From an uncultured Solirubrobacterales bacterium (GTDB taxonomy: Bacteria > Actinomycetota > Thermoleophilia > Solirubrobacterales > Solirubrobacteraceae), in NCBI GenBank assembly GCA_963704385.1, contig OY969904.1:4908825-4972824 (forward strand): a stretch of 64,000 nt of DNA, written 5' to 3'. Position numbers and translations under genes: made by a program. The notes beneath the pieces were generated by a model, which saw only the letters and a list, made by a program, of their open reading frames with translations, did no database searches and was not told the DNA's origin. Positions within the stretch are counted from its first letter, which is position 1. Each line of letters opens with the position of its first letter. Shown piece by piece: positions 10,524 to 38,354 of this stretch.

Positions 10524-10529
10524 GTCGTT

Positions 10530-14197: not shown

Positions 14198-15213
14198 TAC
14201 TGCTCGTCGGCTGCCGCCAGCGCGGCGGCAACGTCGATGATCATGTCCTCTTGTCCGACGACCGCGTGCCGACGGCCCAACTCCACGATGATCTTTCGCG
14301 GATCTACCGAGAAGCGATCGCCCGCGCGGAGCGTATGCAGCAGGAAGCTCGCTGGTACGCCGACGTAGCCGAGGGTGCCGGTGAACCGGTCGATGTCGAT
14401 TGGGCCCGGCATGAGCTCCTTGCGCACGTAGCCGTCCGCCAGATCCTGTGCCCGCCACATGTCCACACCGGTCTCGATGCCGACACGGTCCAGGATGGCG
14501 AGCAATGGCTCCATCTGGCAGTTGCCCGCGCCGGCCCCCATGCCTGCGAGAGTGACGTCGACGATCGTCGCGCCCTCCTCCACGGCCGCGAAGCTGTTGG
14601 CAACGGCGAGTGAGAGGTTGTTGTGCGCGTGCATCCCGATCGCGATGTCGGACGGGAGCACGTCTCGAAGCGCATTCACCCGTGCCCGGACGTCATCCGG
14701 AAGCAGCGCGCCCGCCGAGTCGACGATGTAGACGGCCTGGCTGCCCGCGTCCGAGACGATTCGGCCGCCCTCCGCGAAGCGCTTGGCGTCCGCGACGCTC
14801 GCCATGTTGAGATGGCTGTGCGCCTCCATCCCCAGCTCGCGCGCCAGAGCCAGGTGCTGGATGCCGATGTCCGCCTCGGTACACACCGTCGAGACCCGCA
14901 CGACGGACGCGCCGGCCTCACGAGCGAGTTCGAGCTCGCGCTTGGTCCCGATCCCCGGCAGGAGCGCGACGGCGATGCGCGCCCGTTTTACCACCGCGGA
15001 CGCAGCGCCGATCAGCACCTCGTCAGGGTAGGCGGGAAAACCGTACTGCCGGGATGCGGCGCCTAGTCCGTCCCCGTGACCAACCGCCACCGCCCAGACC
15101 CCGGCCTCGTCGAGTCCCTTCGCGACGGTGGCCACCTGCTCGGGCGTGAACTGGTGCGCGACCGAGTGGGATCCGTCGCGCACGGTCGTGTCGATGATCC
15201 GGACCGTGGTCAT
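14197..15213 (-). CDS. dmpG: 4-hydroxy-2-oxovalerate aldolase
   Basis: [46 protein letters not shown]. Confidence 0.93.
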
Positions 15214-16091
15214 GCGGCGACCGTCCTGAGCGCGTGGCGCTCCGCGACGCGGATCGCGGCCGCCGTCATGATGTCGAGGTTGCCCGCGTACTCGGGCAGA
15301 TAGTCGCCGGCGCCGACGACCTCGAGCAGCACGGTGATCCGCCCATCGTCCACCAGCGGCGGCGCCGTAAGTCTGTACCCGGGGACGTACGCCGCAACCT
15401 CTTCAACCATTCGCTCGATCGCGGCTGAAGCCTCGTCCGGCTCGATACTCGCAGCGTCGAGGTAGACCGTGTTGCGCATCGCGATCGGGGGATCTGCGGG
15501 ATTTAGCAGGATGATCGCCTTGCCGCGGTCGGCCCGGCCCACGGATTCCAGACTTCGCGCGGTCGAGATCGTGAACTCGTCGATGTTCTGACGCGTCCCC
15601 GGCCCGGCCGAATAGGACGAGATCGTCGAGACGATCTCCGCATACTCCACCGGGGCTGTCCTCGAGACCGCGGCGACGATCGGGACGGTGGCCTGGGCTC
15701 CGCACGTCACGAGATTTATGTCGGCGGCGTCAAGGTTCTCTTCGAGATCGACTGCCGGGATCACCGCCGGTCCGAGCGCGGCCGGTGTCAGATCGACCGA
15801 CGCGATCCCGCGCTGGGCGAGGAGAGCGGCATGGGCCGAGTGCGCCCTCGCAGAGGTCGCGTCGAACGCGAGATCGATCCGCTCGACCTTCTTGAGGAGA
15901 TCGGGGAGCCCCTGGTCTGTCGTCGGATGACCTCGTCGCTTGGCAAGCCCCAAGCCGTCCGAATTCGGATCGATGCCCGCCACACCGGCGACCTCGAGCA
16001 ACGCGCTGCGCTCGACCTTGTACATGAGGTCTGTGCCGATGTTCCCTGAGCCGATGATCGCGACCCGCAGCTTGGATGTCGGCTCAGACAC
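15210..16091 (-). CDS. dmpF: Acetaldehyde dehydrogenase (acylating)
   Basis: [50 protein letters not shown]. Confidence 0.93.
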
Positions 16092-17382
16092 GGGAGTTGG
16101 TGTGGTTGAGTCGCCGTTGCCAACCCCGCAGCCCGCGAAAGCGATCCGCGCGAAACGGCTCAAGAATCTCTGGACGCGTCCCTGTGCTCACAAACTGAGC
16201 TATCTGCAGGCCGGCCGGCGCGCCGATCGAGACGCCCTGCATCGAACCGCCGGTGGCCAGGTAGACGTTTGCATAGCCCGGCGCGCGGTCCAAGACCGGG
16301 AGCCCGTCGGGTGCAATCGGTCGCATCCCGGCCCACTCGTGGTCGACCTCGGGGGTTGCCCACTCCACGAACGAGCGGCGCGCGCCTCGAATCGTGGCGT
16401 CGATACGCCGACGATCGAGCCTCGTGTTCAGGCCGCTGAACTCCATCGTGCCGCCGATGCGCATGCGATCGCCAAACGGTGTGCAACCAACGTGCACGTC
16501 GGCAAGCAAGATCGCGTGGCGGGGCACGACGGTCGGAGTGACGAAGAAGCTGTAGCCCTTCCCGGCCTGCATCGGGAGCGAGACTCCGAGCATCTTCGCC
16601 AGCGGCTGGGTCGCCGCCCCCGCAGCGACCACGTAATCCCGCGCGCTGAACTCGTCGGTGGCCGTGCGGACCGTGGCGACGTGGCCGTCGGCGGTGACGA
16701 AGTCGACCACCTCCGCCGCCTCGATGATCTCCACTCCCATTCGGCGCAGCGCGTCAGCCAGCCCGCCGGTATACGAGTCTGGTCGCACGTGCCAGTGCTG
16801 GCGGATTTCAAAGCCGGCCTGCACGATCGGCGCGAGTGCCGGCTCGAGCTCGTGCAACTCAGGTCCGGTGATGATGTCGTCTGGCAGCTCGTAGCCGTAG
16901 TCGCGCATCGGCTTCAGCTTCTCGAGTTCGTGGGCAGCCACGGCGGGTGTTTGTGTCGCGAAGACCATTCCCTGCCGGTAGAGCTCGAACTCAACGCCAT
17001 CCGCGGCCAGCTCCTCCACCAGCTCAAACACCCCCTGGCTGAGGCTGGCCCACGCCGCGAGGCCGTGGCGATAGGAGCGCTCATTGCAATAGGTGATGAA
17101 CTGGAGCAGCCACGGTGCAACCTGCGCGGAGCTGGCGGGGGCGAAATACAGCGGCGAATCGGCGTGGAACATCGCGCGCAGGCCATAGAGCGTGAGGCCG
17201 GGCTCCGGCAGCGGACCTGCCTGAGCCGGGCACAGCCAGCCGCCGCTCCCCCATGTGGCGCCGCTCCCGACCCGATTCGACTCGATCACAGTCACCTCGA
17301 AGTCAAGCCGCCGCAGGTAGTAGGCACAGCAGAGACCGGCCACCCCTGCGCCCACGACGATCACCCGGCGCTCCGAGGTCAC
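16084..17382 (-). CDS. FAD-dependent D-amino acid dehydrogenase/oxidase family (DadA-like)
   Basis: [31 protein letters not shown]; GTG 17382 overlaps RidA stop. Confidence 0.9.
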
Positions 17383-17795
17383 CCCGCCACCGCCGCCGTC
17401 ACCTGTATCTCCACCAGCAGCCCGGGAACCGGAAAGCCCGCCACGGTTGTGGTTCTCGCGGGGCGCGGCGGGAGGAAGGACTCGGCGAAAACCGCGTTCC
17501 AGGCCCCGAAGTCCGCCGAACGTGCCAGGTAGCACTCAACACGCAGCACATGAGCAGGGCTCGAGCCACCGTCCTCTAGCACGCGAAAAATGTCGAGCAG
17601 CACGGATTTCGCTTGCTGAACAAACTCCGCGGATCGGACTTGCAGCGTCGCCGGATCGACATCAGCCCGGCCCGATAGATACAGCGTCCCGTTCCACTCC
17701 GTGGCGTCCGCGATGAGTGGCTCGGCCGCTCCCATCGTCGACCCGGTGCCCAGCACCAGATGCCGTGGTCCATCGTCCAAGCGACCCTTACTCAT
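17379..17795 (-). CDS. RidA/Rid family imine/enamine deaminase
   Basis: LYLSG, DFGAWNAVFAESF..PRPARTT, LVEIQVTA (catalytic Arg present). Confidence 0.88.
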   Translation of the reverse strand: MSKGRLDDGPRHLVLGTGSTMGAAEPLIADATEWNGTLYLSGRADVDPATLQVRSAEFVQQAKSVLLDIFRVLEDGGSSPAHVLRVECYLARSADFGAWNAVFAESFLPPRPARTTTVAGFPVPGLLVEIQVTAAVAG

Positions 17796-17916: not shown

Positions 17917-18648
17917 ATGGCGCTCACGCAGCGGACTGAAGTCCGCCCCGAGCTGTCGCTCAAGCGGGCGTCGCGTCAAAAACTCGCCGAGACCGTGGCG
18001 CAGCAGCTGCTCGAGGCGATCCACGATCTGCCGCCTGGGACGCGACTGCCGCCGGAGCGCGAGCTTACGCGGGAGCTCGGCGTGGGCCGCTCCACGGTCA
18101 GGGAGGCGCTCAACGGTCTAGCGCTGATGGGCACAGTCGACATCCGCCACGGTCAAGGCGTGTTTGTGGCAGACCGCAGCAGCCAGGAGGCGCGCACGCC
18201 GGACGCGCTCGAGCGCGCATTGATGAAGGGCGTCACTCGCGAATTTCTTGAGGCACGACTAGTGGTCGAGGTGGAGATAGCACGATTTGCAGCCGTGCGG
18301 CGCACAGACGCCGATCTCGAACAGATCGCAGAGACGATCGAGGACCTCAAACAGGCGCTGGACGCGCCCACAAGGGACGCCCTCAAACCGGCGACGGGGT
18401 TCAACCTTGCGGTAGCGGAGGCAGCGCATAACGAGGTCCTCGCCGGCGTCATGCGACCATTCATAGAGTTGATGATCGAGCGCGCGCCTGCTCTGTACGA
18501 ACAGGCCGACTTCCGGCGCTGGGATATCGAGGACCACACGCGGATATACGAGGCAATCCGCGACGCCGACCCGGAGCTCGCAGCCGAGCGTATGCGGGAG
18601 CACATCATCACGATCGGCGAGCAGTACAAGCGGGCGGGCGAGGCCTAG
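17917..18648 (+). CDS. FadR/GntR family regulator (FCD domain)
   Basis: RLPPERELTRELGVGRSTVREAL, EARLVVEVEIA, DHTRIYEAI. Confidence 0.93.
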   Translation: MALTQRTEVRPELSLKRASRQKLAETVAQQLLEAIHDLPPGTRLPPERELTRELGVGRSTVREALNGLALMGTVDIRHGQGVFVADRSSQEARTPDALERALMKGVTREFLEARLVVEVEIARFAAVRRTDADLEQIAETIEDLKQALDAPTRDALKPATGFNLAVAEAAHNEVLAGVMRPFIELMIERAPALYEQADFRRWDIEDHTRIYEAIRDADPELAAERMREHIITIGEQYKRAGEA

Positions 18649-18716: not shown

Positions 18717-19472
18717 TCACCCGCCCGCGGCCTCAGGAAGGCCGAGCACCTGCCCCCCGTCGACGTGGATGATGTTCCCAGTCGTCCAGGCCGTCTCGGG
18801 TGCAACGAGCAGCCACACCCATGCGGCGATGTCGTCGGACTGTCCCATCCGCCCGAGTGGGAGGCGACGTGCGAGGTCGGCGTACGTGGCGTCGAGGTCG
18901 TCGCTGTAGGTCGCGTGGATTGGCGTGTCGACCGGTCCTGGCGCGATGCAGTTGACCCGGATGCGGTCGGCGGCGAGCTCGTACGCCCAGGCGCGAGTTA
19001 GGTATTCCAGGGCCGCCTTTGAGGAGCCATAGAGCATGCCGCCGGGCTTTACGATCGAACCGACCGAGGAGCTGATGTTCACAACCGCCGCCTCCGGGGA
19101 CTGGCGCAGCGCCGGGAGCGCCGCGGCGAGCAGGAAGAACGGACCGGCGACGTTGACCGCGTAGTGCCGCTCGAACGTCGCTCGGTCGAATGACTCAAGA
19201 GGCCCGTTCCTGATCACGGCCGCGTTGTTGATCAGCACGTCGATGCGCCCGAACGCGCCCAGCGCTTCGTCGACGATCCGACGCGGCGCGGCCGGGTCGC
19301 CGACGTCGGCGGCAAGCGCGAGAGTCCGACCACCGAGTTCCGCGCGCATGGTCTCGAGCGGCTCTTTACGGCGGCCCACGACTACGACCTCAAGACCCTT
19401 CCTGGACAGCAACCGCGCTGCGCCCGCCCCGAGGCCCGTGCCGCCACCGGTCACGATCGCGACTCGGCTCAT
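18717..19472 (-). CDS. SDR oxidoreductase
   Basis: TGGGTGLG, NNAA, YGSSKAA, NCIAPG. Confidence 0.92.
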   Translation of the reverse strand: MSRVAIVTGGGTGLGAGAARLLSRKGLEVVVVGRRKEPLETMRAELGGRTLALAADVGDPAAPRRIVDEALGAFGRIDVLINNAAVIRNGPLESFDRATFERHYAVNVAGPFFLLAAALPALRQSPEAAVVNISSSVGSIVKPGGMLYGSSKAALEYLTRAWAYELAADRIRVNCIAPGPVDTPIHATYSDDLDATYADLARRLPLGRMGQSDDIAAWVWLLVAPETAWTTGNIIHVDGGQVLGLPEAAGG

Positions 19473-19547
19473 GAAGTCATACCGATGTCGCCATTCCGAC
19501 GCCGAGGCTGGGGCTGCGCTCGGTGAGCTCTCGCCCGGTCGTTTGCA

Positions 19548-20435
19548 TCAGGCGGGAACCGCCGTGCGCGAGAGCTCCTGGAAGAGCTCATACGCATCAC
19601 CCGCCGGTGCGCCCTCATGCACTACCTCAGCGACCGCCCGGATCATCGCGGCGGGCGATTCCGACTGGAAAATGTTGCGGCCCATATCGACGCCCGCTGC
19701 GCCTTCCTGGACGGCCCGGTACGCCATCTGGAGAGCATCGAGTTCCGGCAGCTTCTTGCCCCCGGCCATGACGACTGGCACCGGGCAGCCGGCGGTGACT
19801 TGCTCAAACCCTTCCTCGACGTAGTACGTCTTGACCATCTGGGCGCCCAGCTCTGCGCAGATCCGCGTCGCCAGTCCGAGGTAGCGCGCGTCGCGTGTCA
19901 GCTCCTTGCCGACCGCCGTCACGCCGAGAACCGGGATGCCGTACCGGTAGCCCGCGTCGACGAGCCGTGTCATGTTCTCGATCGACTGCGTCTCGTGCTC
20001 GCCGCCGACAAACACCTGGACTGCGACGCTGTGGACGTTCATGCGCGCGGCGTCCTCCATGTCGACGGCGATGCGCTCGTTCGAGAGTTCTCTGAGGATG
20101 CTCGGGCCGCCGCTGCCCCGCATGACGATCCCGCCGCGAAAGGTCGCCGGTATCGTCGAGCGCAGCATTCCGCGCGTCAACATCAGCGCGTCGGCATATG
20201 GCGCGATCGGCACGATGTTCAGGTCGACGCGTTCGAGCCCCGTCGTGGGCCCCTGGAAGTAGCCGTGGTCGATCGCAAGCATCACGGTGCGGCCGGTGTC
20301 TGGCCGAAAGATGCGGGCGAGACGGTTTTTCATCCCCCAGTCGTAGGCACCGGATCCCTTTAGGAAGAAACGCTGGTCGGGAGCGGGGATGTCCGTGTGG
20401 AAGTTTTTCTCCTGCCTGTCGTCTGCCTCGGGCAT
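19548..20435 (-). CDS. lsrF: LsrF (3-hydroxy-5-phosphonooxypentane-2,4-dione thiolase)
   Basis: [57 protein letters not shown] match LsrF throughout. Confidence 0.92.
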
Positions 20436-20454
20436 CGCGGTTCCTTTCGTTGTT

Positions 20455-22017
20455 CTAGGTGCCGGCCGCACGCCAAAGCGGGCGGGCGAGACCGGCTTCG
20501 GAGATCTCGAGGCTGCGCGCGTAGAGCTCGAGCCAGCGGTCGTACAGTTCGCGGTAGGCCGCACTTGCGCTGGGATCCGGCTGGCAGGAGCGCTCGAAGC
20601 GCACGAGTCGTTCGGCCGCCTCACCCGCGTCGCGATATAGCCCAGCGCCAACGCCCGCGTAGATCGCCGCGCCGAGCGCGGTGGATTCCTTCACCTCCGG
20701 GATCCGGATCGGGATGGCGAGCGCGTCCGCGACGATCTGCGGCCATAGTGCGCCCTTTGCCGCACCGCCGATGAGTACCGCTTCGTCGACGTCTATCCCG
20801 GCCACCTCCTGCACTATCTCCAGATGGCCGCGTGTGACATACGCTGCGCTCTCTTCGATCGCCCGGAAGCACTCGACCCGACCGGCGCTTGAGGGATTGC
20901 CAACGTCGAAGCCGAGGAAGCCCGGCGAGGCGTGCACCCAGCGGCTCGCCCGCATGACGTTCGAGAAGATTCCGAAGACGCCGTTTGAGCCCGGCGCGAC
21001 GTCGCGCGCCTTGCGCTCCATGATCGCGTACACATCCTCGCCGGTCGACAGCGCCTCGAGCGCCTCAAGCTCACAGAACGCGTCACGGAACCAGCGCATA
21101 ACGATCCCGCAGTAGAACCCGATTCCCTCCATCATCCACCGCTCAGGGACCGTGTGACAGAGCGTTCGCAAACGTGCTTCGGGGTCGATCAGCGGCTCGT
21201 CAAGAACGACGGTGGCCTGCCAAAAGCTGCCGCCGACGATCGTCACCCGACCGGGCTGCGTAACGCCGATGCCGAGCAGGCCAAGCTGCGTGTCCGCGCC
21301 GCCCGTCACCACGGGCGTCCCCTCGCTGAGCCCTGTCGCGGCCGCAGCCTCGGCGGTGACCGTGCCGACGACGGTGCCGGCCTCGACGATCGGGGGAAAC
21401 ACCGACCGCCCGAGGCCACACAGCTCGAGCACACGGTCTGACCAGTCGCGAGCCGCCAGGTCGAACAGACCCGAGCTCGAACCGAGCGACGGATCAGTGA
21501 CGAAGGCGCCAGAGAGCTTGGCCAGGATCCAGTCGCCGAGCATCCCGACGTGTGCAACGGCAGCAAAGATCTCCGGTTGATGGCGGGCGATCCACAGAAA
21601 TCGCGCCGGCGCCGTGATCGCCACCCAGTCTCCAGCCAGGTCGTAAATCTCCTGCGCGGCGCCCGATCGGACGAGTTCATCGGCCTCCTCGCTCGCGCGC
21701 GAGTCGGCGTTCGGGCACGCCCATATCTCGCGTCCGCTCGCGTCGTAGAGGACCATTCCTTCGCGCATGCTGGTCGCGCTCACCGCCTTGACTGCATCGC
21801 TGGGTCGCCCAGATTCCTCGAGCGCATCACGAACGCATTCGCAAATCAGGCGCCAGTTCGTGTCGGTGTCGAACACCTGCGAGCCCGGGATTCCCGGATG
21901 CGGAGGATGGGTGTACTCGCGCTGGCAGATTGCGAGCTGCGCGCCGTCGGGAGTGAATATGACGGCTCGACAGCTTCCCGTGCCGGCGTCAATCGCGAGT
22001 AGCAACTCGTCGGTCAT
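20455..22017 (-). CDS. lsrK: LsrK-like autoinducer-2 (DPD) kinase, FGGY family
   Basis: [48 protein letters not shown], terminal LWRAAG match LsrK features. Confidence 0.88.
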
Positions 22018-23054
22018 GCGGCAGCCTGAGCCCGATCGAAGACGTTGACCAAGGGCTCGCCCGCTGCGAAGCGCTCGATTTCGGCCGCGATCATTTCAGC
22101 TCCCTGACGGAGGGTCTCGTGGGTTGCGCCGCCCACATGCGGGGTTAAGACGACGTTTTCGTGGCGCAGCAGGCGATGCCGTCCTTGTTCCGTTGTCGGC
22201 CGCAAGACATCGAGGGCCGCTCCGGCGAGACGGCCCGACGTCAGCGCGGCATCCAGCCCATCCTCGTCCACCAGCGTCTCGCGCGCCGTGTTGATGAGAC
22301 ACGCGCCTTGCTTCATCGCCGACAGCGCGGCGGCGTCGATGAGGTTCTCGTTTTGGGGCGTGGCGCGGGCGTGCAGCGAGACAAAGTCGCTGGAAGCGAG
22401 CAGCTCATCGAGCGTCCGCACTTCGCTCACGCCGTCGGTGTCGCCGACGGCAACAAAGGGATCGTAAGCGAGCACGGTCATCCCGAACGAAACGGCACGC
22501 TGCGCGACGCGCCGACCAATCTGTCCGTACCCGATGATTCCGAGCACGTGGCGGCGGAGATCGCTTCCGAGGAATCTCGCGCCCTCCCAAGTGTCCTCCA
22601 CCCGATTACCTTCCTGAAGGAAGCGCTGCGCTTTCGGGAGGCGGCGGGCGAGCATGACGAGAAACGCGAGCGTCAGGTCCGCGACCGCCTCGGCATTCTT
22701 GCCCGGAGTGTTGACCAACGGGAGGCCGCGGATGCTCACCGCGTCGACGTCCACGTTTACCGGCCCGCCACGCGCACAGCAGACCAGCCGGAGTTTCGGT
22801 GAGGCATCGAGCACCTGATCGGTTACCGGAGCGCCCTGCACGACGAGGACGTCAACGCCTGCCATCCACTCGACGAGCTCAGACGGAGAGCCCTGATACT
22901 CCCGCAGCTTCCGTTCGGATGGGGTGGCTGGAGTGAACGGACGAGCCGAATCGACTTGGACGATTTCGACGTCGTGCGCGCGTTCGAGGTCGGCGAATGC
23001 CTCTGCGAAGTATCGCGGAGGCATATAGGTATCGCCGACGGCGAGAATCCTCAA
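22014..23054 (-). CDS. D-2-hydroxyacid dehydrogenase family NAD(P) oxidoreductase
   Basis: RGGPVNVD, TPGKNAEAVAD, GYGQIG, LINTARETLVDE, TPHVGGAT. Confidence 0.9.
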   Translation of the reverse strand: MRILAVGDTYMPPRYFAEAFADLERAHDVEIVQVDSARPFTPATPSERKLREYQGSPSELVEWMAGVDVLVVQGAPVTDQVLDASPKLRLVCCARGGPVNVDVDAVSIRGLPLVNTPGKNAEAVADLTLAFLVMLARRLPKAQRFLQEGNRVEDTWEGARFLGSDLRRHVLGIIGYGQIGRRVAQRAVSFGMTVLAYDPFVAVGDTDGVSEVRTLDELLASSDFVSLHARATPQNENLIDAAALSAMKQGACLINTARETLVDEDGLDAALTSGRLAGAALDVLRPTTEQGRHRLLRHENVVLTPHVGGATHETLRQGAEMIAAEIERFAAGEPLVNVFDRAQAAA

Positions 23055-23072
23055 CGGGACACTCTCGTTCGG

Positions 23073-23576
23073 CTAGGGGTAGACGCGGATCGGGGTGAGA
23101 TCAACGGCATGCCCCGTGCCCGATTCGAAGATGACCTTGAGCAGCGGCTCCGTGTCCAGGTAGTAGAAGTGGATGGTCTCGCCGATGCGGCCCTCCATCA
23201 GGATCCCGGCGCCCATGTCTTCGAATCTCCGCCTCGTCGCCTCGGACTCGGCGGGGGTCGGCCTCATGACCGCGATGTGGTGCAGCCCCTCGCCGTGCGA
23301 ATCCAACCACTCCTTGTAGATGCTCGGCCCATCCTCCGGCTGCAGCAGCTCGACAACGATCTCGCCAACGTGCGTCTCGGCTCCGATCATCGTGAAATCA
23401 GCCGGCCGTCCATGCAGGTACGTGTCGTGGAGGGCTGGAGGCTTGTGCTCATATACATTCCAGGGCCCCCATCCGAGAGCTCGGTGGTAACGCTCGAGAG
23501 CTTGGTCGATGTCTTTCACGACGATCGCGATCTGGCTGATCGGGAGCGGTTCCGGCGGTGGCGCGACCGCGCTCAT
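23073..23576 (-). CDS. VOC family protein
   Basis: QIAIVVKD, ELLQP..GPSIYKEWL..HGEGLHHIAV. Confidence 0.85.
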   Translation of the reverse strand: MSAVAPPPEPLPISQIAIVVKDIDQALERYHRALGWGPWNVYEHKPPALHDTYLHGRPADFTMIGAETHVGEIVVELLQPEDGPSIYKEWLDSHGEGLHHIAVMRPTPAESEATRRRFEDMGAGILMEGRIGETIHFYYLDTEPLLKVIFESGTGHAVDLTPIRVYP

Positions 23577-23703
23577 ACTCTGTGTGTCCCCACCCGGTAT
23601 CTGCACTTCTCACCTCCTGTTTGTGCGAGTGAACCCACGTTCACAAGTGTCGTCTGGGTAGTCACCTTGTCTCGTCTGGTTGCTGGGGAGAAACGCTCGG
23701 CGG

Positions 23704-24498
23704 TTACGCCCCGATATTGGTTGGGGGCGGTAGCCCGACCGACAGTGCTCCGTCGACGACAAGCAATTCGCCCGTGAGATAGGACGCGTCTTCTGAGCAC
23801 ATCCAGAGGATCGCGCGCGCAATCTCGGCAGGCTCGGCGAAACGGCCTAATGGAATCCGTTCGAGGAATACCTTCGACTGCACCGGGTCATTGATCACGA
23901 ACGCCGCGAGACGGGTGTTGATGATCCCGGGCGCGATTGCGTTCACGCGGATGCCGTGCTGCGCAAGATCGAGCGCAGCGGTTTGCATGACCGCCACCTG
24001 GGCCGACTTCGAAGTGTTGTAGGCGAGCCCGCCGCCCTCCGGTTGAAAGGCATTTGTCGACGCGGTGATCGCGATCGCGCCCCGCGTTCCCTGCCGCACC
24101 ATGGCGCGGGCGGCCTCCTGAGCGAGGTACAACGTGCCGTTGAGGTTGACCTCCATGATGCGCTGCCATTGCTCATCGGGAAATTCCAAGAAGGGCACGA
24201 ACTCAGCGATCCCGGCGACCTGGACGGCAACGTCGAGATGGCCGAAGCGCTCGACCGCAAGTTCGATGGCTCGGACGACGTCCTCACGACGGCTGACATC
24301 TCCGACGACAGCTTCGACGCGTCCGCTGGTTCGTCGGATACTCTCCAGTGCGCTGTTCAGGGCGTCTGGCTCTATGTCGAGGAGCACCACCCCCGCGCCC
24401 TCGCCGACGAACCCCTCCGCAACGGCCCGGCCCAATCCCTGGGCTGCCCCTGTGACAACCACGCCCTTTTCCGCAAATCGGGCTAACGACATCGTCAT
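23704..24498 (-). CDS. SDR oxidoreductase
   Basis: TGAAQGLG, YNTSKSA, NAIAPG; ATGA overlap with upstream gene. Confidence 0.92.
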   Translation of the reverse strand: MTMSLARFAEKGVVVTGAAQGLGRAVAEGFVGEGAGVVLLDIEPDALNSALESIRRTSGRVEAVVGDVSRREDVVRAIELAVERFGHLDVAVQVAGIAEFVPFLEFPDEQWQRIMEVNLNGTLYLAQEAARAMVRQGTRGAIAITASTNAFQPEGGGLAYNTSKSAQVAVMQTAALDLAQHGIRVNAIAPGIINTRLAAFVINDPVQSKVFLERIPLGRFAEPAEIARAILWMCSEDASYLTGELLVVDGALSVGLPPPTNIGA

Positions 24499-25655
24499 TG
24501 CAAAAGCCCGATATGGCCAGGGCCTCGAGGAATCACGGGCCATATGTCAACGACGCGGTCACCCTCGACGACGTGATAAGCGTCGTACCAGTTAACAGTA
24601 CCGGGTGTGTACCCGGGCACGAGCTCGACGACGTCGCCGACCTCGAGCGTGACATCGCCAGTAGCTACGAAGACTCCGTGCTCCTCATCCGAGCGGAGCA
24701 CCGGCAAATCGTGACCACAGATAGTTGCCAGGGCGGGAGCGCCCATCGACTTGTTACCCGCGTCGACGACAACGCGGTCGGAACGCCGGCTGATAACGGT
24801 GGAGAGAACGGTGAGCGCCTGCTCGAAGTCAGAAATCATCGCGCCGTGGAAGTTGTCCATGACAACATATGACCCCGCCTGGATTTCGGTAACTCCGGGG
24901 AATGCCGCCGTCCAGTCCCACGTCGCAGTCCCGCCCGCTGACACGATGTCGCAGGGAAAGCCCGCTGCGCGGATCGACTCACCCACGCCCACGAGGAACC
25001 GCATTGCCGCCTGCTGGCGCTCATGACGCAGGTCGCGGTCCGGCGTGAGTGAGCAATGGCCTTCGTACCCAGTGACGCCAGTCAACCGGAGACCATCCAA
25101 GTGCGCGAGCCGATCGGCCAGCGTAATCGCCTCCTCGACGGAATCAACACCAGCTCGATCCATTCCAGTGTCGACCTCAATCAGCACCTCGAGCGTGCTG
25201 CCGGCGGCTCGCGCCTCCGCCGCGATCGCCGCGCCGTTTCGAGCGTCGTCCACGGCGACCATCACGTCGGCCTGGCGTGCGAGTGCCGCCAGCGCCGCAA
25301 GCTTGTAGCGGCCCGAGACCGTGTTCACGACCAATACACCGTCTAGGCCCGCCTGGACCATCACCATCGCCTCCCAGACGGTGGCCGTCGATACACCGAT
25401 CGCCCCCGCCTCGACCTGCATCCGAGCCAGCTCCGGGCTCTTGTGGACCTTGACGTGCGGCCGCAATTCGGCGCCACCCAGCGCCTTCAGTGTCTCAGCC
25501 ATCTTGGCTATGTTCCGGCGCACGACTGCGAGGTCTAGTACCAGGGCGGGAGTCACGAGGTCATGTCGCCGGCTCCCGATCTCCCAGCCGTACGCGCGGA
25601 GGACGCGATCGCGGACTTCCTGCAGGACAGGCTCGACCCCTAACACGCCAGCCAT
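24495..25655 (-). CDS. Fold-type III PLP enzyme (DSD1 / D-threonine aldolase family), copy 2
   Basis: TPALVLD, LRPHVKVHKS, DTGMDRAGV, GYEGH, EIQAGSY, DEEH. Confidence 0.9.
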   Translation of the reverse strand: MAGVLGVEPVLQEVRDRVLRAYGWEIGSRRHDLVTPALVLDLAVVRRNIAKMAETLKALGGAELRPHVKVHKSPELARMQVEAGAIGVSTATVWEAMVMVQAGLDGVLVVNTVSGRYKLAALAALARQADVMVAVDDARNGAAIAAEARAAGSTLEVLIEVDTGMDRAGVDSVEEAITLADRLAHLDGLRLTGVTGYEGHCSLTPDRDLRHERQQAAMRFLVGVGESIRAAGFPCDIVSAGGTATWDWTAAFPGVTEIQAGSYVVMDNFHGAMISDFEQALTVLSTVISRRSDRVVVDAGNKSMGAPALATICGHDLPVLRSDEEHGVFVATGDVTLEVGDVVELVPGYTPGTVNWYDAYHVVEGDRVVDIWPVIPRGPGHIGLLQ

Positions 25656-25943
25656 CGCTGCGAACCCCTAGATGGCCGAGCGGAGACGCCCACGCCTGCG
25701 ATGTCTCGTCGGACGAGCGACTTGCTTCCCTTGTCTGGCCACACAGTCTCGGGCGCCTGCCGTGCCTCAGCCCGGGACGAATGGCTCGCTCCGAGCGGGA
25801 ACCGTGGGCGCATACGTGGCGGGAAGAACGATTCCGGCCACCGGCAACCATTCACCGACAGTCGCTGGCCGTTGGTGCCTTTCATGCGGTCGTGCCTGTG
25901 TTCGCTGGAGAATCTGTAAGCGCTGCGCGAGTATACATCGTCC

Positions 25944-25953
25944 TGTACGGACA
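25944..25953. promoter_or_regulatory. Operator TGTACGGACA (site 1 of 4)
   Basis: Near-palindromic 10-mer repeated at 26033, 29622, 29687; minus-strand -10-like TATACT at 25930-25935. Confidence 0.65.
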
Positions 25954-25991
25954 GCCTGCTTAGCTCGTTAGCTGCGATGGCGGCTGTAGGC

Positions 25992-26042
25992 TTGACAGGA
26001 GGCGCGCGGCTGTGCATGATCTCTCGTCATCCTGTCCGGACT
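25992..26042 (+). promoter_or_regulatory. Sigma70-type promoter TTGACA-N17-CATGAT plus operator site 2 (26033-26042)
   Basis: Direct reading; upstream of the GntR gene. Confidence 0.7.
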
Positions 26043-26063
26043 AATTTCTAGTCGGTAGGACCC

Positions 26064-26879
26064 ATGCTTCCGAAGCCCGCGAAGCTGCCGCCGACACAAA
26101 TCGACCGTCAGTCGCCTGTTCCCTACTACTTTCAGCTTTCGGAGCTGCTTGAGCAGGAGATCATGTCCGGCCGGTGGGAGCCCGGAACTCGACTTTCTTC
26201 CGAACCGGAGATCTCGAGACAACTGGGCCTGTCGCGGACGACGATCCGCCAGGCTCTGGGCCGACTGGAACAGAGAGGTCTGGTCCAGCGACGGAAGGGA
26301 CAAGGCACGTTCGTGGCGGAGTCGGAGCCCAGGTCTTGGCTCCTGCAGTCATCGGGCGGGTTCTTCGAGGAGGAGTTTGGTCGGATGGGACGGCTCGTCA
26401 CCTCGGTTGTTCTGCGCTCCACCGCCCGGGGACCGCTGCCACCGTGGGCGACGTCAGCGCTCGGACTTGCTGGGCCCCGGGGCGGGACGCTCGAGCGAGT
26501 CCGCGCGGTCGATGGCTTGGTCGCGATGTACGTCATAAACCACCTCTCGCCCGGACTCGCCGAGTTGGTACTTCCGCTGGCCGATCCGAATGAGTCGCTC
26601 TATCAGCGATTGAAGGACCGCGCAGACACCGAGACGGCCGGCGGTCGCCGCATGCTGGAGGCCGTTCGTGCTGAGGAGCGACTCGCGAGGCTTTTAGAGC
26701 TCCCAGTCGGCGCGCCATTGGTCTTCGTCGAGTCGGTGAGTTGGGACCGCAATCTGCGGCCCTTTGACTGCTATCAGGCGTGGCTACGCAGCGACCGAAT
26801 GCGGATCGATGTCTCAGTCTCTTCGTCACCGTTCACGCCTCAGTTCTCGACCCCTGAAATCGCTGGTGGTGTCACATGA
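26064..26879 (+). CDS. GntR/HutC family regulator (UTRA domain)
   Basis: PVPYYFQL, LSRTTIRQAL, RRKGQGTFV, C-terminal UTRA (PFDCYQAWLRSDR). Confidence 0.92.
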   Translation: MLPKPAKLPPTQIDRQSPVPYYFQLSELLEQEIMSGRWEPGTRLSSEPEISRQLGLSRTTIRQALGRLEQRGLVQRRKGQGTFVAESEPRSWLLQSSGGFFEEEFGRMGRLVTSVVLRSTARGPLPPWATSALGLAGPRGGTLERVRAVDGLVAMYVINHLSPGLAELVLPLADPNESLYQRLKDRADTETAGGRRMLEAVRAEERLARLLELPVGAPLVFVESVSWDRNLRPFDCYQAWLRSDRMRIDVSVSSSPFTPQFSTPEIAGGVT

Positions 26880-26925
26880 GATCTGCCAGCGGCGATCCCC
26901 TAGTGCGATCCGCATAGGAGGAGTA

Positions 26926-28437
26926 ATGGAGCACATCGACACAGCTTCGGCGGTCCCACCCTCGAGCGACAAGGCAGCGACCGACGAGGTGCTCGTCGCC
27001 AAGACAAGGCTCGCCGGCGGCGCCCTGCGCCTTCCGGAAGCGTTGATGCAGAGCATCACCGAAACCGCTCCAGCGTTCACCTTGTTCTTCTTTATACAGG
27101 GGACGGTGCTACTCGCGGTTGGCGCCACGCCTTTCGTGTTCCTGGTCGGCATTGTGATCATGGTGTTGCTCGCGATCACGCTAGCCCAGATTGCGAGATA
27201 TCTTTCGTCCGCCGGCGGCTTCTTTACATGGGTAAGCCGAGGGCTTCATCCTCGAGTCGGCTGGTTCATCGCGTGGCTGTATGCCTTGTATACCCCGCTT
27301 CTGCCCGGTCTCGTTCTTGGACTTGTCGGCTACATATCGGACCAGTTCTTCAAGGCCCAGTACGGTTTTTCGGTTCCGTGGGCGTGGTGGGTCCTTGGCG
27401 GCGTAACCCTTTGCGCGCTTATCTCCTATCGCGGTATCAAGCTCAGCGGGCGCCTTCTGCTAATTACTGGGTCGGTTGAGATAGTGATCATGATGACTCT
27501 CGCGGTCTGGGGACTGGCGAGCCCAGGGAAGGGGGGGTTCAATCTCTCAGGGTTCAATCCAAGCACCGCCCCGACTTCGCACGGACTCTATCTCGCCGTG
27601 ATTTTCGCGATCGTTGCGTACACGGGATGGGAGTCGGTTGCCTCACTGGGCGAGGAGACCGAAAACCCCAACCGCAACATCGGAATAGCTATGTGGGCCT
27701 CGGTCCTGCTTCTGGGGATAATGTTTTCGTTCTTTGCCTGGGGAGTGCTTGTCGGATGGGGAACATCGCAAGCGGCCGCGTTTGGGTCTGCTACGAACAA
27801 TCCGCTGTTGACTGTGGCACACCGCTACTGGCACGGTGCTGACATAATTCTGCTCGTCGCGTTGTGGAATTCCGGCTTTGCCGGATCGCTCGCTCTCTTC
27901 AATCAGAGCACCCGTATGTGGTTTGGGATGGCTGACGCGGGGGCGCTGCCCAAGCAGCTGAAGTATGTCCACCCGAAGTACAAGACCCCGGTTGGCACCA
28001 TCGTGGCCGAGGTAGTCGTTGCCTTTGTCGCTGCTTTTGTGTTCTATCAGGTACTCTACGACCCGCTGACGGGTTTCGGCTTCTATGCGTTCGCGCTGGG
28101 CTTTGCGATTGTGCTGATCTACAGCGCGGCGGCTATTGCCACGGGAGCGTATTTCTGGCGCGAGCGACGGTCGCAGTTCAACCCGGTCGTGCACCTCGTA
28201 TTCCCGGTAGTGGTGACGGTTGCGTTAGTTTGGAGTGAATACAAAGCGGTGGTTCCACTTCCTCCGGCCCCTACTCGCTATGCGCTGTGGTTCTTTGTCG
28301 GTTGGGCCGTGATCGGATTCGTAATCCTGTTGGCGATGCGCCTCGCTGGGAAGGAAGATTGGCTTATCCATGCCGGCGAAGGCGCTGTACTCCGACCCGA
28401 GTCTCCGGAGGAGCTCGCGCACAGACCGGAGTTTTAA
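26926..28437 (+). CDS. APC family amino acid/polyamine permease
   Basis: About 12 TM segments, SAGGFFTW, YTGWESVASLGEETENP; AGGAGG SD. Confidence 0.9.
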   Translation: MEHIDTASAVPPSSDKAATDEVLVAKTRLAGGALRLPEALMQSITETAPAFTLFFFIQGTVLLAVGATPFVFLVGIVIMVLLAITLAQIARYLSSAGGFFTWVSRGLHPRVGWFIAWLYALYTPLLPGLVLGLVGYISDQFFKAQYGFSVPWAWWVLGGVTLCALISYRGIKLSGRLLLITGSVEIVIMMTLAVWGLASPGKGGFNLSGFNPSTAPTSHGLYLAVIFAIVAYTGWESVASLGEETENPNRNIGIAMWASVLLLGIMFSFFAWGVLVGWGTSQAAAFGSATNNPLLTVAHRYWHGADIILLVALWNSGFAGSLALFNQSTRMWFGMADAGALPKQLKYVHPKYKTPVGTIVAEVVVAFVAAFVFYQVLYDPLTGFGFYAFALGFAIVLIYSAAAIATGAYFWRERRSQFNPVVHLVFPVVVTVALVWSEYKAVVPLPPAPTRYALWFFVGWAVIGFVILLAMRLAGKEDWLIHAGEGAVLRPESPEELAHRPEF

Positions 28438-28737
28438 TGGACGAGCGCGGTGACGCCCGCGTGGCGGTAGAGATCTGAACGACCGGTCGCCAGTGCGCTC
28501 ATTGTCGCTGCGGTGGTAGGGCTATACATGATCCCTGCGCGATGTTTCGCTATCGGCCATAAGGTCTATCGCCCGGCCGGACCTTGCTGAAAGCGGGCGG
28601 GTCGTAACTAAATAAAGAGACGGCCAACAGATGATGCCGAAGACGACCGCACGACGCGAATCTCACGATGGTGTGTTCCGGGGCGGGCGACGGACCCCTC
28701 GAGACCGAGGTGGGCCGGCCAGGGGACGGCTGGGGAA

Positions 28738-29580
28738 ATGAAGCTAGGGATCAATTTGTACCTCTGGACGGATCGCATGCACGAGCAGCTGCTGCCGGTG
28801 CTCGAGTCACTGAAGCAGATCGGTTATGACGGCGTTGAAGTGCCGATATTCGACCTTGACACCGCGGAGTGGGCCCGCTGGGCCCGTCGTCTCGATGACC
28901 TTGGGCTTGAACGCACCGCTAACACGGTAATCGCGCCCGAGCATAATCCGGTGAGCCCAGACCGAGCAGTCCAAGAAGCTGCGTACCGGCACATGCAGGC
29001 CGTCGTCGACTGCTGCGCCGCGGTGGGATCATCCGTCTTGTGCGGCCCGCACCAGGTCGCGCTCGGCGTCTTCACAGGAGCTGGTCCAACCGAAAGCGAG
29101 TGGAGACGCAGCGTCGACCACCTGCACCGAGTAGCTCAGTACGCCCAGCAGGCGGGGGTTATCCTTGCAGAGGAAGTCGTCAACCGGTTCGAGCTCTATC
29201 ACCTGAATACGCTGGATCAGGCGATTCGGTTTGTAGATGAGGTCGGCCATCCGTGCTGTCGCATCCATCTCGATACGTTCCACGCCCACATCGAGGAGAA
29301 GGACCCGGGGGATGCGATCCGGCGCGCCGGGAACCGGATCGCGCACGTCCATATCTCCGAGAACGACCGCGGTGTACCCGGAACCGGATCCGTCGCTTGG
29401 GACGCGACCTTCGACGCCTTGCGCGAGATCGGCTACGACGGCTGGCTCACTGTCGAAGCATTCGGCCACTTCCTGCCCGACCTCGCCGCCGCCACCCGGA
29501 TTTGGCGGAAGCTGTTCGAAAGCGAAGATCAGCTGGCTCGGGAGGCCCTTTCTTTCCTGCGGGCGCGGCTGGGGCCCTGA
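28738..29580 (+). CDS. Sugar phosphate isomerase/epimerase (D-psicose/tagatose 3-epimerase-like)
   Basis: GYDGVEVP, EVVNRFE, LDTFHAHIEE, HVHISENDRG, VEAF. Confidence 0.9.
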   Translation: MKLGINLYLWTDRMHEQLLPVLESLKQIGYDGVEVPIFDLDTAEWARWARRLDDLGLERTANTVIAPEHNPVSPDRAVQEAAYRHMQAVVDCCAAVGSSVLCGPHQVALGVFTGAGPTESEWRRSVDHLHRVAQYAQQAGVILAEEVVNRFELYHLNTLDQAIRFVDEVGHPCCRIHLDTFHAHIEEKDPGDAIRRAGNRIAHVHISENDRGVPGTGSVAWDATFDALREIGYDGWLTVEAFGHFLPDLAAATRIWRKLFESEDQLAREALSFLRARLGP

Positions 29581-29753: not shown

Positions 29754-30461
29754 ATGTCCGCGAACCGCATCGGTAAGCCAGACGACGTTCCTTCCGTTAG
29801 GTCTTACAGCACGCGCTTCCCACTGGATGAAAATCCGATCGCGGAGGGGGGCATCTGGCTCAACGGCCGGGACGATGGGATCGACTGGGCCAACATCCTC
29901 ACCGAAGATGGGCTAGCCCATGGAGAGTCGATTCCCATGGTTGTCGCGGAGCAGCGGGTGGAACAGGGTGACGAAATTGACGTCCCGGTGGGTGACTACA
30001 ACGACCCTACCGCGATCCTGAAGGGTCCGTGGGGCAGGAACCAACACGCCAAAGCCATCGTTCGCAGCCGCAATCAAACCAGCGATCGCTATCACGAAGT
30101 CGAATTGCGTCTGCGCAGCACGCTCCTTCCCAACCGCATTCCCGGATATGAAGTCTTCTTCCGATGCCTGAAAACCGACGACGGCTATGCAGAAATCGTG
30201 CGGTGGGAAGGCCCGCTGGGAGGCTGGACGTCTCTATGTAGGAAGAACGGCGCAGAGTTTGGTGTCCAGGACGGAGACGTGATCGAGGCGACCATTATGG
30301 GCAACGAAATCAAGGGATACATCAATGGGGTGGAGGTCACATCCGCCAAAGATGATACTTACCCCTCCGGCAATCCTGGCATCGGATTCAATTACGGGGC
30401 CGAGGAGACGGCTGGGGACCACGGCTTCACATACTACGAGGTGGAGACGTGGGATGACTGA
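29754..30461 (+). CDS. Hypothetical beta-rich protein (lectin/LamG-like by inference)
   Basis: 235-aa ORF with normal composition; C-terminal IKGYINGVEV..DDTYPSGNPGIGF; no signal peptide. Confidence 0.7.
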   Translation: MSANRIGKPDDVPSVRSYSTRFPLDENPIAEGGIWLNGRDDGIDWANILTEDGLAHGESIPMVVAEQRVEQGDEIDVPVGDYNDPTAILKGPWGRNQHAKAIVRSRNQTSDRYHEVELRLRSTLLPNRIPGYEVFFRCLKTDDGYAEIVRWEGPLGGWTSLCRKNGAEFGVQDGDVIEATIMGNEIKGYINGVEVTSAKDDTYPSGNPGIGFNYGAEETAGDHGFTYYEVETWDD

Positions 30462-31939: not shown

Positions 31940-31999
31940 CTCGATTGACGCCGATGGTCCTAGCGCATTGGGCGCCGGGCGTAAAGGAGCAGACGAAAG

Positions 32000-37954: not shown

Positions 37955-38354
37955 GGCTGTCGGGTTTGTTCCCATACACCGACCATAACTGAGGACAAGC
38001 CGCCGCCGTGCTTTTTCAGACTCCGGCCATCGCCTGCGCGAGCTCTAGACCTTGCGGGTTCGGCGGAAGGCTCGTGGCGTCGTGACGATCGCATTCGCGC
38101 CAGTGCCGACGCCTGGGGCACGATCGCGTTGGCGACATTCGAGTGGCCCAAGACCAGCGCCCTCCTGTTCGCGAGGTCCAGGGGCTGCGCGGGTCGGCGT
38201 GATCCCACCCTGCTTCGGGGTGGGCGCGGTAGTCCGTTGCGTGCTGGTGCGCCGGGGGCTCATTCGTCTGAACTGAGTTGGGTTGCGCGCTTCTGCGGAA
38301 TGGATGATGCGGGTGTCGGCAAGTTTTGACGCTGCGCGACGTTTCATCCGGCGG

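Follow-up and report, generated by a model that had tools for sequence, protein, structure and literature searches.

A stretch of 64,000 nucleotides from contig OY969904.1 of an uncultured Solirubrobacterales bacterium (the window) has on its minus strand a seven-gene operon with homologs of lsrK and lsrF, the kinase and thiolase genes of autoinducer-2 (AI-2) processing. To our knowledge, no role has been described for LsrK and LsrF other than processing the AI-2 signal and terminating it. In the window, their genes are joined to those of a fold-type III pyridoxal phosphate (PLP) enzyme, two short-chain dehydrogenases/reductases (SDR_A and SDR_B), a single-domain vicinal oxygen chelate (VOC) protein, and a D-isomer-specific 2-hydroxyacid dehydrogenase (2HADH) that resembles phosphoglycerate dehydrogenase (PGDH) (table 1). 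All seven genes, as well as the adjacent GntR regulator and amino acid-polyamine-organocation (APC) permease, lie where the original prediction placed them. That prediction limited the cluster to 18717–25655, which is accurate for the operon, but the functional unit reaches further and covers at least 18717–29580. It also described the locus as lacking the lsr transporter, lsrR, and lsrG; searches (tblastn) with the Escherichia coli proteins LsrA, LsrC, LsrD, LsrB, LsrG, and LsrR agreed, giving no match in the 64-kb window at an E value of 1e-8 or of 1e-2. The GC content of the window is ∼61–72%.

The operon is tightly packed. Stop and start codons overlap as ATGA between the genes of the PLP enzyme and SDR_B, where the likely SDR_B start is the ATG at 24498, and again between those of 2HADH and LsrK. 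A gap of 16 nucleotides with the ribosome-binding site GAAAGGAA separates lsrK from lsrF, 75 nucleotides separate lsrF from the SDR_A gene, and the remaining gaps are 18–97 nucleotides. The VOC gene has a GTG start preceded by an AGGAGG ribosome-binding site.

Table 1. Coordinates of the operon, its divergent partner genes, and selected neighbors in the window.
Feature	Position	Strand	Family match or remark
Second operon	9564–17535	−	FCD-type GntR regulator at 17917–18648 (+)
SDR_A, accessory dehydrogenase, last gene of operon	18717–19472	−	adh_short_C2, 189.9 bits
LsrF, class I aldolase-fold thiolase	19548–20438	−	NF006081, 3-hydroxy-5-phosphonooxypentane-2,4-dione thiolase
LsrK, FGGY kinase	20455–22017	−	NF008187, autoinducer-2 kinase; FGGY_N and FGGY_C
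2HADH, PGDH-like	22014–23054	−	2-Hacid_dh; 2-Hacid_dh_C, 178.9 bits
VOC protein, single domain	23073–23606	−	Glyoxalase_4, 55.6 bits
SDR_B, classical SDR	23704–24498 (open reading frame up to 24543)	−	adh_short_C2, 199.7 bits
Fold-type III PLP enzyme, first gene of operon	24495–25655	−	Pfam Ala_racemase_N and D-ser_dehydrat
Divergent control region, 408 bp	25656–26063		between operon and hutC
HutC-subfamily GntR regulator	26064–26879	+	GntR helix-turn-helix, 70.8 bits; UTRA, 67.1 bits
APC permease	∼26926–28437 (start codon uncertain)	+	AA_permease_2, 102.6 bits
Xylose-isomerase-like barrel, ketose-3-epimerase-like	28738–29580	+	AP_endonuc_2, 154.9 bits
Conserved 235-aa protein	29754–30461	+	matches no Pfam or NCBIfam family
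IS110-family transposase	33268–34347	+	DEDD_Tnp_IS110 and Transposase_20; edge of catabolic island

Recurrence of the gene combination

Related loci were fetched with the window LsrK (the best 80 of 403 matches, labeled L001 and so on), and homologs of the window genes were mapped onto them. Co-occurrence was counted in those 45 loci that extend 6 kb or more to either side of LsrK. The 2HADH gene is present in 42 of these and directly adjoins lsrK in 40, an arrangement that goes far beyond chance. The VOC protein (36 of 45), the PLP enzyme (33), and LsrF (32, directly adjoining LsrK in 23) follow in frequency, and then the HutC-type regulator (25), the APC permease (19), SDR_B orthologs of at least 45% identity (18, usually straight after the PLP gene), and SDR_A (16). 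The carriers, as titled in their records, are metagenome-assembled genomes (MAGs) of Solirubrobacterales, Gaiellaceae, Acidimicrobiales, Chloroflexota/Limnocylindrales, Dormibacterota, Eisenbacteria, Acidobacteriota, and Nitrososphaerota, plus cultured Microbacteriaceae. The association of lsrK and lsrF with such an operon, originally predicted from the window alone, recurs across phyla. Gene order varies between lineages while gene content is conserved, suggesting that selection acts on the combination.

Other genes recur as well. A hydrolase of the Pfam Cyclase family (kynurenine-formamidase-like), whose sole relative in the PDB is the uncharacterized 5ibz, is encoded in 32 loci, its gene typically lying between those of the SDR and the VOC protein. 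An Rpe-like epimerase gene directly follows lsrF in 13 loci, and an HxlB-like SIS protein and a DUF4432 (mutarotase-like) protein are each encoded in five. Among close relatives of the window, the cyclase gene is present in L003 and L071 and an Rpe/LsrE-like gene lies between lsrF and the SDR_A gene in L002 and L003. Neither is inside the cluster of the window or of L001, and because both are missing, the window cluster is best seen as a trimmed version.

Recent loss or rearrangement of this kind, together with an IS110 transposase ∼8 kb away, is what might be expected if lsrK and lsrF had decayed from a canonical lsr operon, or were stray duplicates from one, and by chance had come to lie beside an unrelated PLP-enzyme operon. 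However, the same association recurs, in rearranged order but with its content kept, in dozens of genomes that span several phyla, the reading frames are intact and translationally coupled, the active sites are fully conserved, and no canonical lsr gene occurs in any related locus. We consider a stray duplicate very improbable, as conserved synteny effectively refutes it.

The conserved core is 2HADH-LsrK-LsrF with the VOC protein, and it is joined to different sets of upstream genes. The commonest feeder set, that of the window, combines the PLP enzyme and an SDR with the APC permease and may or may not include the cyclase and DUF4432 proteins. In L006–8 and L060, the core is accompanied by a Dpp-type ATP-binding cassette (ABC) transporter, an SDR, and tandem VOC proteins, without a PLP enzyme; in L010–14, by a Dpp-type ABC transporter beside a sugar-acid cluster; in L024 and L070, by a CUT2 ABC transporter; and in Microbacteriaceae, by a CUT1 ABC transporter. 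Because the same core joins different sets, the PLP/SDR/APC part seems to be an exchangeable adaptor that serves an amino compound.

A single Acidimicrobiales locus (L036) has only HutC-2HADH-LsrK-LsrF. Next to HutC is a 385-aa open reading frame (588–1745, minus strand) whose N-terminus resembles, by eye, PLP enzymes of Cys/Met metabolism (methionine γ-lyase/cystathionine lyase). In this one case, the reading frame is a possible alternative feeder for a γ-substituted amino acid such as S-ribosylhomocysteine.

Archaeal contigs assigned to Nitrososphaerota (L037, L038, L041, L043, L048, L050, L055, L059, and L069) have the full set, with 2HADH, LsrK, VOC, and LsrF genes in most, and add genes for the PLP enzyme, cyclase, SDR, an APC-like permease, and a DAO-family oxidase. 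One of these contigs is 1.6 Mb long and one belongs to a Gagatemarchaeum MAG. Their LsrK proteins are 57–60% identical to bacterial LsrK, which suggests inter-domain transfer. Locus L044 (DASPYG010000182, "Nitrosopolaris sp.") has a Dormibacterota-type gene order and may be mis-binned.

Relation to the canonical Lsr system

For comparison, a canonical set of 80 LsrG-bearing loci was assembled with E. coli LsrG as query; all are from Proteobacteria save one contaminant. That locus (L083; SMXE01000224, a "Caldithrix sp." MAG) encodes an LsrG that matches the E. coli protein at 100% identity, and E. coli contamination is almost certain. Because the scan for LsrG rests on peptide patterns derived from E. 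coli, absence of canonical loci from other phyla is only suggestive. Eleven canonical loci were examined: eight have a complete lsrK-R-A-C-D-B-F-G set, in two LsrK alone is without a full-length match within the fetched flank, and that of Stappia (L161) has LsrK, LsrR, LsrG, and a weak LsrC-like match but no LsrF.

Homologs of 2HADH, the VOC protein, the PLP enzyme, the APC permease, and HutC are found in none of the 80 canonical loci. Conversely, neither the window nor the 80 related loci, hereafter soil-type loci, have a homolog of LsrB or of LsrG at E < 1e-3, and searches for LsrACD in the soil-type loci returned only generic ABC ATPase and permease matches of 25–35% identity. The soil-type core and LsrG/LsrACDB are mutually exclusive among the sampled loci. 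In a genome survey of 2012, lsrF or lsrG was a predictor of the remaining lsr genes (PMC3420918); the soil-type loci break this rule. We found no relevant described LsrK/LsrF pathway outside lsr in the literature.

As in the enterobacterial Lsr system (lsrRK/lsrACDBFG, with lsrE in Salmonella), LsrK and LsrF score above the equivalog cut-offs, the LsrF active site is identical, the predicted products are dihydroxyacetone phosphate (DHAP) and acetyl-coenzyme A (acetyl-CoA), and some relatives encode an LsrE-like epimerase and a SorC/LsrR-like regulator. An Rpe-like gene (lsrE) lies right after lsrG in 17 of the 80 canonical loci, and its product is 39–44% identical to the epimerase of the soil clusters; LsrE has been described as homologous to epimerases, with no known role (PMC2728841). 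Unlike in the Lsr system, an APC permease or other ABC families replace LsrB/LsrACD, LsrG is absent, the regulator in the window is of HutC type, and the core is tied to a PGDH-like dehydrogenase and a VOC protein and often to a PLP enzyme, an SDR, and a cyclase-family hydrolase. The hosts differ too: those of the canonical system are Proteobacteria, and those of the core belong to soil Actinomycetota, Chloroflexota, Dormibacterota, and Nitrososphaerota.

In neighbor-joining trees, canonical and soil-type LsrK form sister clades, with the window LsrK inside the soil-type clade. Canonical LsrF is sister to the bacterial soil clade and the archaeal soil clade is basal. The families are thus divided into two arms, one with LsrACDB and LsrG, and the other with 2HADH, a VOC protein, and varied transporters.

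LsrK, LsrF, and the position of LsrG

LsrF scores 484.4 bits against NF006081 (cut-off of 297) and is 59% identical to LsrF of E. coli K-12. The canonical enzyme converts 3-hydroxy-2,4-pentanedione-5-phosphate (P-HPD) and CoA to DHAP and acetyl-CoA (PMC8016206). Its ligand-binding and catalytic residues in E. coli are Asp57, His58, Lys203 (which forms the Schiff base), Gly226, Gly227, Asp251, Met252, Gly253, and Arg254; Asp251 is LsrF-specific, and His58, Gly226, Gly227, Gly253, and Arg254 cradle the phosphate (PMC2728841). All nine are invariant in the window protein and 31 orthologs. At the 112 positions that are invariant in canonical LsrF, the soil group is identical at 72 and has group-specific differences at only three. 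Because the active-site residues are invariant and group-specific differences so few, thiolase chemistry with DHAP and acetyl-CoA as products is probably unchanged.

LsrK has diverged more. The window protein scores 619.5 bits against NF008187 (equivalog cut-off of 528) over residues 3–519 of 520, is 44% identical to LsrK of E. coli K-12 over 517 aa, and is 96% identical to the protein of the Solirubrobacterales MAG contig L001. Relative to canonical LsrK, there are 21 group-specific substitutions, clustered near E. coli positions 141–145, 190–193, and 297–306, so its specificity is possibly shifted.

A shift in specificity could extend to the whole pathway, such that it involves no C5 methyl diketone of the type of P-HPD or of 4,5-dihydroxy-2,3-pentanedione (DPD), the AI-2 compound. 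A ketopentose, a tetrose, or a 6-deoxy-ketohexose would then be the substrate, and LsrF would either yield DHAP together with the CoA ester of a glycolyl, formyl, or lactoyl group or work as a simple aldolase. The changes in LsrK are compatible with this, as are the genes of relatives for Rpe-like, HxlB-like SIS, and ketose-3-epimerase-like proteins, which are typical of ketose-phosphate metabolism. Likewise, phosphorylation followed by a PGDH-like oxidation beside CH2OP and a Schiff-base cleavage would fit any ketol of the form R-CO-CHOH-CHOH-CH2OH. Against this, the three group-specific substitutions in LsrF are among 291 positions and none is at a listed ligand-contacting residue, and its identity to canonical LsrFs (59–62%) is close to that between canonical alphaproteobacterial and E. 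coli LsrF (65%). Moreover, ketopentose phosphates are already served by the pentose-phosphate pathway, which would make a CoA-dependent route redundant. We judge such a shift unlikely.

With no homolog of LsrG, another protein is expected to fill its position. No conserved family of small open reading frames fit for a divergent ABM-fold protein was found in the related loci. The candidates are 2HADH and the VOC protein, both of which belong to the soil-type loci and neither to the canonical loci. The dehydrogenase scores 231 bits against the PGDH model TIGR01327, under its cut-off, and retains the family's catalytic Arg and His motifs. Relative to human PHGDH, two N-terminal arginine sites are altered (LIVRSA to LVVQGA and GRAGTG to CCARGG); these arginines are presumably the anion-binding site. 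We propose that 2HADH supplies the oxidation that gives LsrF its 2,4-dione substrate.

VOC proteins stabilize metal-bound enediolates. VOC or cupin chemistry would suit a shift from phospho-DPD (P-DPD) to P-HPD or an epimerization at C3, making the VOC protein a candidate metal-dependent enediol isomerase or epimerase. Its closest entry in the PDB is the uncharacterized 3gm5 (E of 4e-13), and it has a weak similarity to methylmalonyl-CoA epimerase. In cultured Gryllotalpicola kribbensis JCM 17593 (L068:8103–16025), the cluster consists of HutC, 2HADH, LsrK, LsrF, a small cupin open reading frame after lsrF, and a CUT1 ABC system, with no VOC match, PLP enzyme, or SDR in it. The cupin standing in for the VOC protein suggests that this slot is for a metal-dependent isomerase. 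Cultured Microbacteriaceae have a similar minimal cluster (L065 and L067), and with cultured Gryllotalpicola and Microbacterium strains carrying the minimal core, the core pathway is directly testable. Besides G. kribbensis, the culturable carriers include G. koreensis JCM 17591 and Microbacterium bandirmense Mu-80.

The original prediction offered, as an alternative, AI-2 degradation in which the VOC protein replaces LsrG. The VOC protein does stay a candidate, but the gene tied most tightly to lsrK, by adjacency and by ATGA overlap, is that of 2HADH. More broadly, the cluster could scavenge or quench genuine AI-2, with other transporters in place of the Lsr importer, a VOC protein, cupin, or dehydrogenase (as a redox isomerase) in place of LsrG, and the PLP enzyme and SDR as unrelated add-ons. 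The LsrK, LsrF, LsrE-like, and some LsrR-like genes are near-orthologous to AI-2 processing genes, the active site of LsrF is identical, the minimal Gryllotalpicola cluster amounts to a transporter, 2HADH, LsrK, LsrF, and a cupin, and the metal-enediolate chemistry of VOC and cupin proteins would suit isomerization of P-DPD to P-HPD. Conversely, the PLP enzyme and SDR genes are translationally coupled in the operon and the former accompanies the core in most loci, while transporters of APC, Dpp, CUT1, and CUT2 types suggest that several compounds are imported. Conversion of DPD to P-HPD is redox neutral and needs no dehydrogenase, yet 2HADH is the most conserved gene beside lsrK. LsrK has its 21 group-specific substitutions, and AI-2, a trace compound, is an improbable target for a repressor-controlled, multi-enzyme growth operon. 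We rate AI-2 scavenging as somewhat less probable again than a wholesale change of substrate.

PLP enzyme, proposed pathway, and surroundings

The best matches of the PLP enzyme in the PDB are the D-threonine aldolases (DTA) 7dib and 4v15 (E of ∼1e-53), and BhcC (6qkb) is also matched. Its residues were mapped onto AxDTA, a D-threonine aldolase (PMC4401734). As in the DTA/DSD1/BhcC family, it has an alanine racemase-like N-terminal domain and a β-domain, and keeps the PLP lysine, the ligands of the PLP phosphate and pyridine nitrogen, and the arginine that binds O3' and the carboxylate (K69, corresponding to AxDTA Lys59; R167, to Arg157; Y197; T243; Q259; and S262). Unlike in the family, the metal ligands His347 and Asp349 are replaced by Y349 and P351, the aldolase base His193 by L203, and Tyr260 by H270. 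The metal-site motif reads VPGYTPGT in the window versus VPSHVDPT in AxDTA, VPGHCDPT in BhcC, and IPYHACAT in chicken D-serine dehydratase (DSD); the metal positions are His/Asp in DTA and BhcC and His/Cys in chicken DSD and D-threo-3-hydroxyaspartate (D-THA) dehydratase.

These replacements are characteristic of the cluster. All ∼30 bacterial cluster orthologs have Tyr/Pro, occasionally Tyr/Ala, at the metal-ligand positions, and three archaeal cluster enzymes retain His/Asp. At the position of the aldolase base, most orthologs have Leu, two bacterial ones have Gly, three archaeal ones have Ile, and none has His. Most Nitrososphaerota PLP enzymes have a His/Asp metal site; the one of L048 is of the bacterial metal-less type. 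Judged by these motifs, the enzyme constitutes a separate subfamily ("PGY" motif) of the D-threonine aldolase/DSD1 family without a metal site. The designation DSD1-type, given in the original prediction, is accurate for fold, PLP lysine, and two-domain architecture and fails for metal ligands and aldolase base; because these are lost, the protein should not be named D-serine dehydratase or D-threonine aldolase. It is the probable deaminating step of the feeder module. A paralog in the window (10530–11783; 47% identical, with "PGYGP" of the metal-less subfamily) is encoded in the neighboring operon along with a cyclase. Their location beside a 4-hydroxy-2-oxoacid aldolase fits a deaminating β-elimination role for the subfamily.

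A deaminating PLP enzyme in a sugar-acid pathway has a precedent. In the oxidative chitin (GlcNAc1A) pathway of Pseudoalteromonas, the fold-type III PLP enzyme OngC, a relative of D-serine dehydratases and D-threonine aldolases, deaminates D-glucosaminate (PMC9537276). The ong cluster is likewise under a repressor and has an enzyme that deaminates an amino-sugar acid with a hydrolase partner, OngB there and possibly the cyclase-family protein here, but OngB is of the D-aminoacylase family rather than the cyclase family, and OngC is likened to the window enzyme by description, not sequence. Downstream, the ong cluster has a kinase for 2-keto-3-deoxygluconate (KDG) and an aldolase for its 6-phosphate (KDPG) in place of 2HADH, LsrK, and LsrF (PMC9537276). 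The APC permease, the PLP enzyme, and the OngC precedent all fit a feeder for an amino compound.

The plus-strand genes add to this picture. The APC permease has weak NCBIfam matches and no specific transporter family could be assigned; it is presumed to import an amino or zwitterionic substrate. The triosephosphate isomerase (TIM)-barrel protein scores 176 bits against the D-psicose 3-epimerase model NF051856, under the cut-off of 300, versus only 31.6 bits against the FrlC model. Its orthologs, at least 81% identical, are encoded near the cluster in L001–L003, L061, and L071, and more distant XylIso-like genes occur in archaeal clusters. Together, ketose-3-epimerase-like and Rpe-like genes point to 2-keto-3-hydroxy intermediates, free and phosphorylated. 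The 235-aa protein has orthologs of 84–95% identity in the Solirubrobacterales loci L001, L002, L003, L011, and L071, where they too are beside the permease and epimerase genes; its single-sequence AlphaFold2 model had a mean pLDDT (predicted local distance difference test score) of 36 and was unusable.

A HutC-type repressor would control both divergent transcription units. Alignment with L001, L002, and L071 identified three blocks in the control region that are conserved in the four genomes (25930–25955, 25991–25999, and 26013–26037). The first, which reads GCTGTCCGTACAGGACGATGTATACT on the minus strand, contains the palindrome GTATAC, which we take to be the GT..AC core of a GntR-type operator. 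The other two are overlapped by a plus-strand promoter-like site (TTGACA-17-CATGAT, 25992–26020), one such site being found versus 0.7 expected by chance. In seven loci, mostly from Dormibacterota and Chloroflexota MAGs, the regulator is SorC/LsrR-like instead of HutC and is 26–30% identical to E. coli LsrR.

We infer all reaction assignments, the order of steps, and the identity of substrates in the pathway proposed here. The feeder of the window (APC permease, PLP enzyme without a metal site, and SDR), to which relatives add the cyclase-family hydrolase and DUF4432, would import and then deaminate a zwitterionic hydroxy-amino compound, the leading guess being an amino sugar or amino-sugar acid. 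In the fullest clusters, DUF4432, the SDR, and the hydrolase would suit conversion of a sugar to a lactone and then an aldonate. Input to the core would be a small, neutral C5 compound that ends in a methyl ketone, either a 1-deoxy-pentulose (CH3-CO-CHOH-CHOH-CH2OH) or DPD, whose primary hydroxyl LsrK would phosphorylate. The 2HADH, the VOC protein, or both would convert the product to P-HPD, the task of LsrG in enterobacteria. The dehydrogenase could oxidize the carbinol beside CH2OP, comparable to PGDH acting on 3-phosphoglycerate, or the C3 carbinol beside the ketone. Finally, LsrF with CoA would cleave the dione to DHAP and acetyl-CoA.

The outline of these steps resembles the DHAP shunt for 5-deoxyribose and methylthioribose, in which a kinase, an isomerase, and an aldolase (MtnK, MtnA, and a class II aldolase) yield DHAP and an aldehyde, the C2 product being acetaldehyde. 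In both, a methyl-terminated C5 sugar would be salvaged by phosphorylation and cleavage to DHAP and a C2 unit. The enzyme families are unrelated, however, and the extra dehydrogenation here would permit thiolytic cleavage straight to acetyl-CoA.

Other routes into the core were considered and rejected. Passage from glucosaminate through KDG to LsrK and LsrF gives a 2-keto-3-deoxy product (KDG/KDP type) without the C3 oxygen that the 3-hydroxy-2,4-dione of LsrF needs. A 3-dehydrogenation and decarboxylation to 1-amino-1-deoxy-pentulose, with loss of NH3 to form DPD, balances but leaves the dehydrogenase without a role. The fructoselysine (frl) Amadori operon has counterparts to the APC permease, HutC, and ketose-3-epimerase-like gene, but the cluster has no gene for a deglycase of FrlB type (double SIS) or a PfkB kinase of FrlD type. 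An IlvD/Edd dehydratase beside LsrF in L010 could be a sign of 2-keto-3-deoxy-aldonate input, but may belong to an adjacent Weimberg-like sugar-acid cluster.

Because of synteny across phyla, translational coupling, conservation of LsrF, and lack of LsrG and LsrB in the 80 related loci, we lean with some reserve toward the operon being an undescribed catabolic version of the lower Lsr pathway that is independent of LsrG and LsrACDB. The same evidence sustains that part of the original prediction in which an undescribed catabolic route has LsrK and LsrF as its lower half; the convergence on a DPD-like diketone that it added is a conjecture. Several points weigh against the catabolic reading. 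We found no chemically clean path on paper from a 2-amino-2-deoxy-aldonate to a 1-deoxy-C5 ketol. The dehydrogenase would be redundant if the substrate of LsrK were DPD itself, and LsrK may act on a relative of DPD instead. Possible reactions of the PLP enzyme include those of a β-lyase that expels a better leaving group than hydroxide, a metal-independent deaminase, a racemase, or a decarboxylase. The co-occurrence counts are phylogenetically non-independent and come from the loci most similar to the window LsrK, the trees carry no support values, and the absence of lsrACDBG pertains to the 64-kb window, out of a contig of ∼5.1 Mb, and to the sampled loci. Lastly, the public sequencing runs that contain the sequence are all soil-metagenome DNA, with no RNA runs among them.

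A catabolic role would change how these families are viewed. Relatives of LsrK and LsrF probably also serve as ordinary catabolic enzymes in many soil microbes, and thousands of close homologs are annotated as AI-2 kinase or aldolase/thiolase. If the proposal is correct, annotations of "autoinducer-2 kinase" and "AI-2 aldolase/thiolase" in soil metagenomes should not be taken as AI-2 quorum sensing. It would also mean a new route to DHAP and acetyl-CoA for a soil compound that is apparently common, show non-orthologous proteins in place of LsrG, give the metal-less subfamily of D-threonine-aldolase-like PLP enzymes its first context, and touch on the long-standing question of whether the processing of AI-2 started as metabolism rather than signaling. 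There is a slim chance that DPD or P-DPD forms inside the cell as an obligatory intermediate when amino sugars or amino-sugar acids, such as oxidized chitin products, pass through a widespread soil pathway. The cluster would then be a LuxS-independent source and sink of AI-2 in Actinomycetota, Chloroflexota, Dormibacterota, and Nitrososphaerota, and the enterobacterial Lsr system would have arisen by recruiting LsrK, LsrF, and LsrE from an older catabolic route and adding LsrB-ACD and LsrG.

The genes around the cluster are of several kinds. Those for formiminotransferase FTCD (2917–4173, minus strand), an M3 peptidase (5479–7284, minus strand), a phosphoesterase-family protein (36647–37975, minus strand), and an S15 X-Pro dipeptidyl peptidase (38283–40427, plus strand) are unrelated and have no link to lsr, luxS, or ABC sugar import. 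The second operon, immediately downstream of the first on the same strand, encodes a DadA-like FAD dehydrogenase, 4-hydroxy-2-oxovalerate aldolase, a DUF1537 four-carbon acid-sugar kinase, a class II aldolase of fructose-bisphosphate/tagatose-bisphosphate type, an acylating acetaldehyde dehydrogenase assigned by its sequence and its position beside the aldolase, the metal-less PLP paralog, and its Pfam Cyclase protein (9564–10523). In L001 and L002, and in L042, which is more distant, parts of this operon also adjoin the LsrK cluster, which suggests a linked catabolic island for amino and hydroxy acids. The second operon may be functionally linked, for example by handling a related amino-hydroxy acid via a 4-hydroxy-2-oxoacid. 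Downstream of the permease operon are a Gfo/Idh/MocA oxidoreductase and a further SDR (30854–32815, plus strand), which with the TIM-barrel gene recall sets for sugar 3-oxidation and epimerization.

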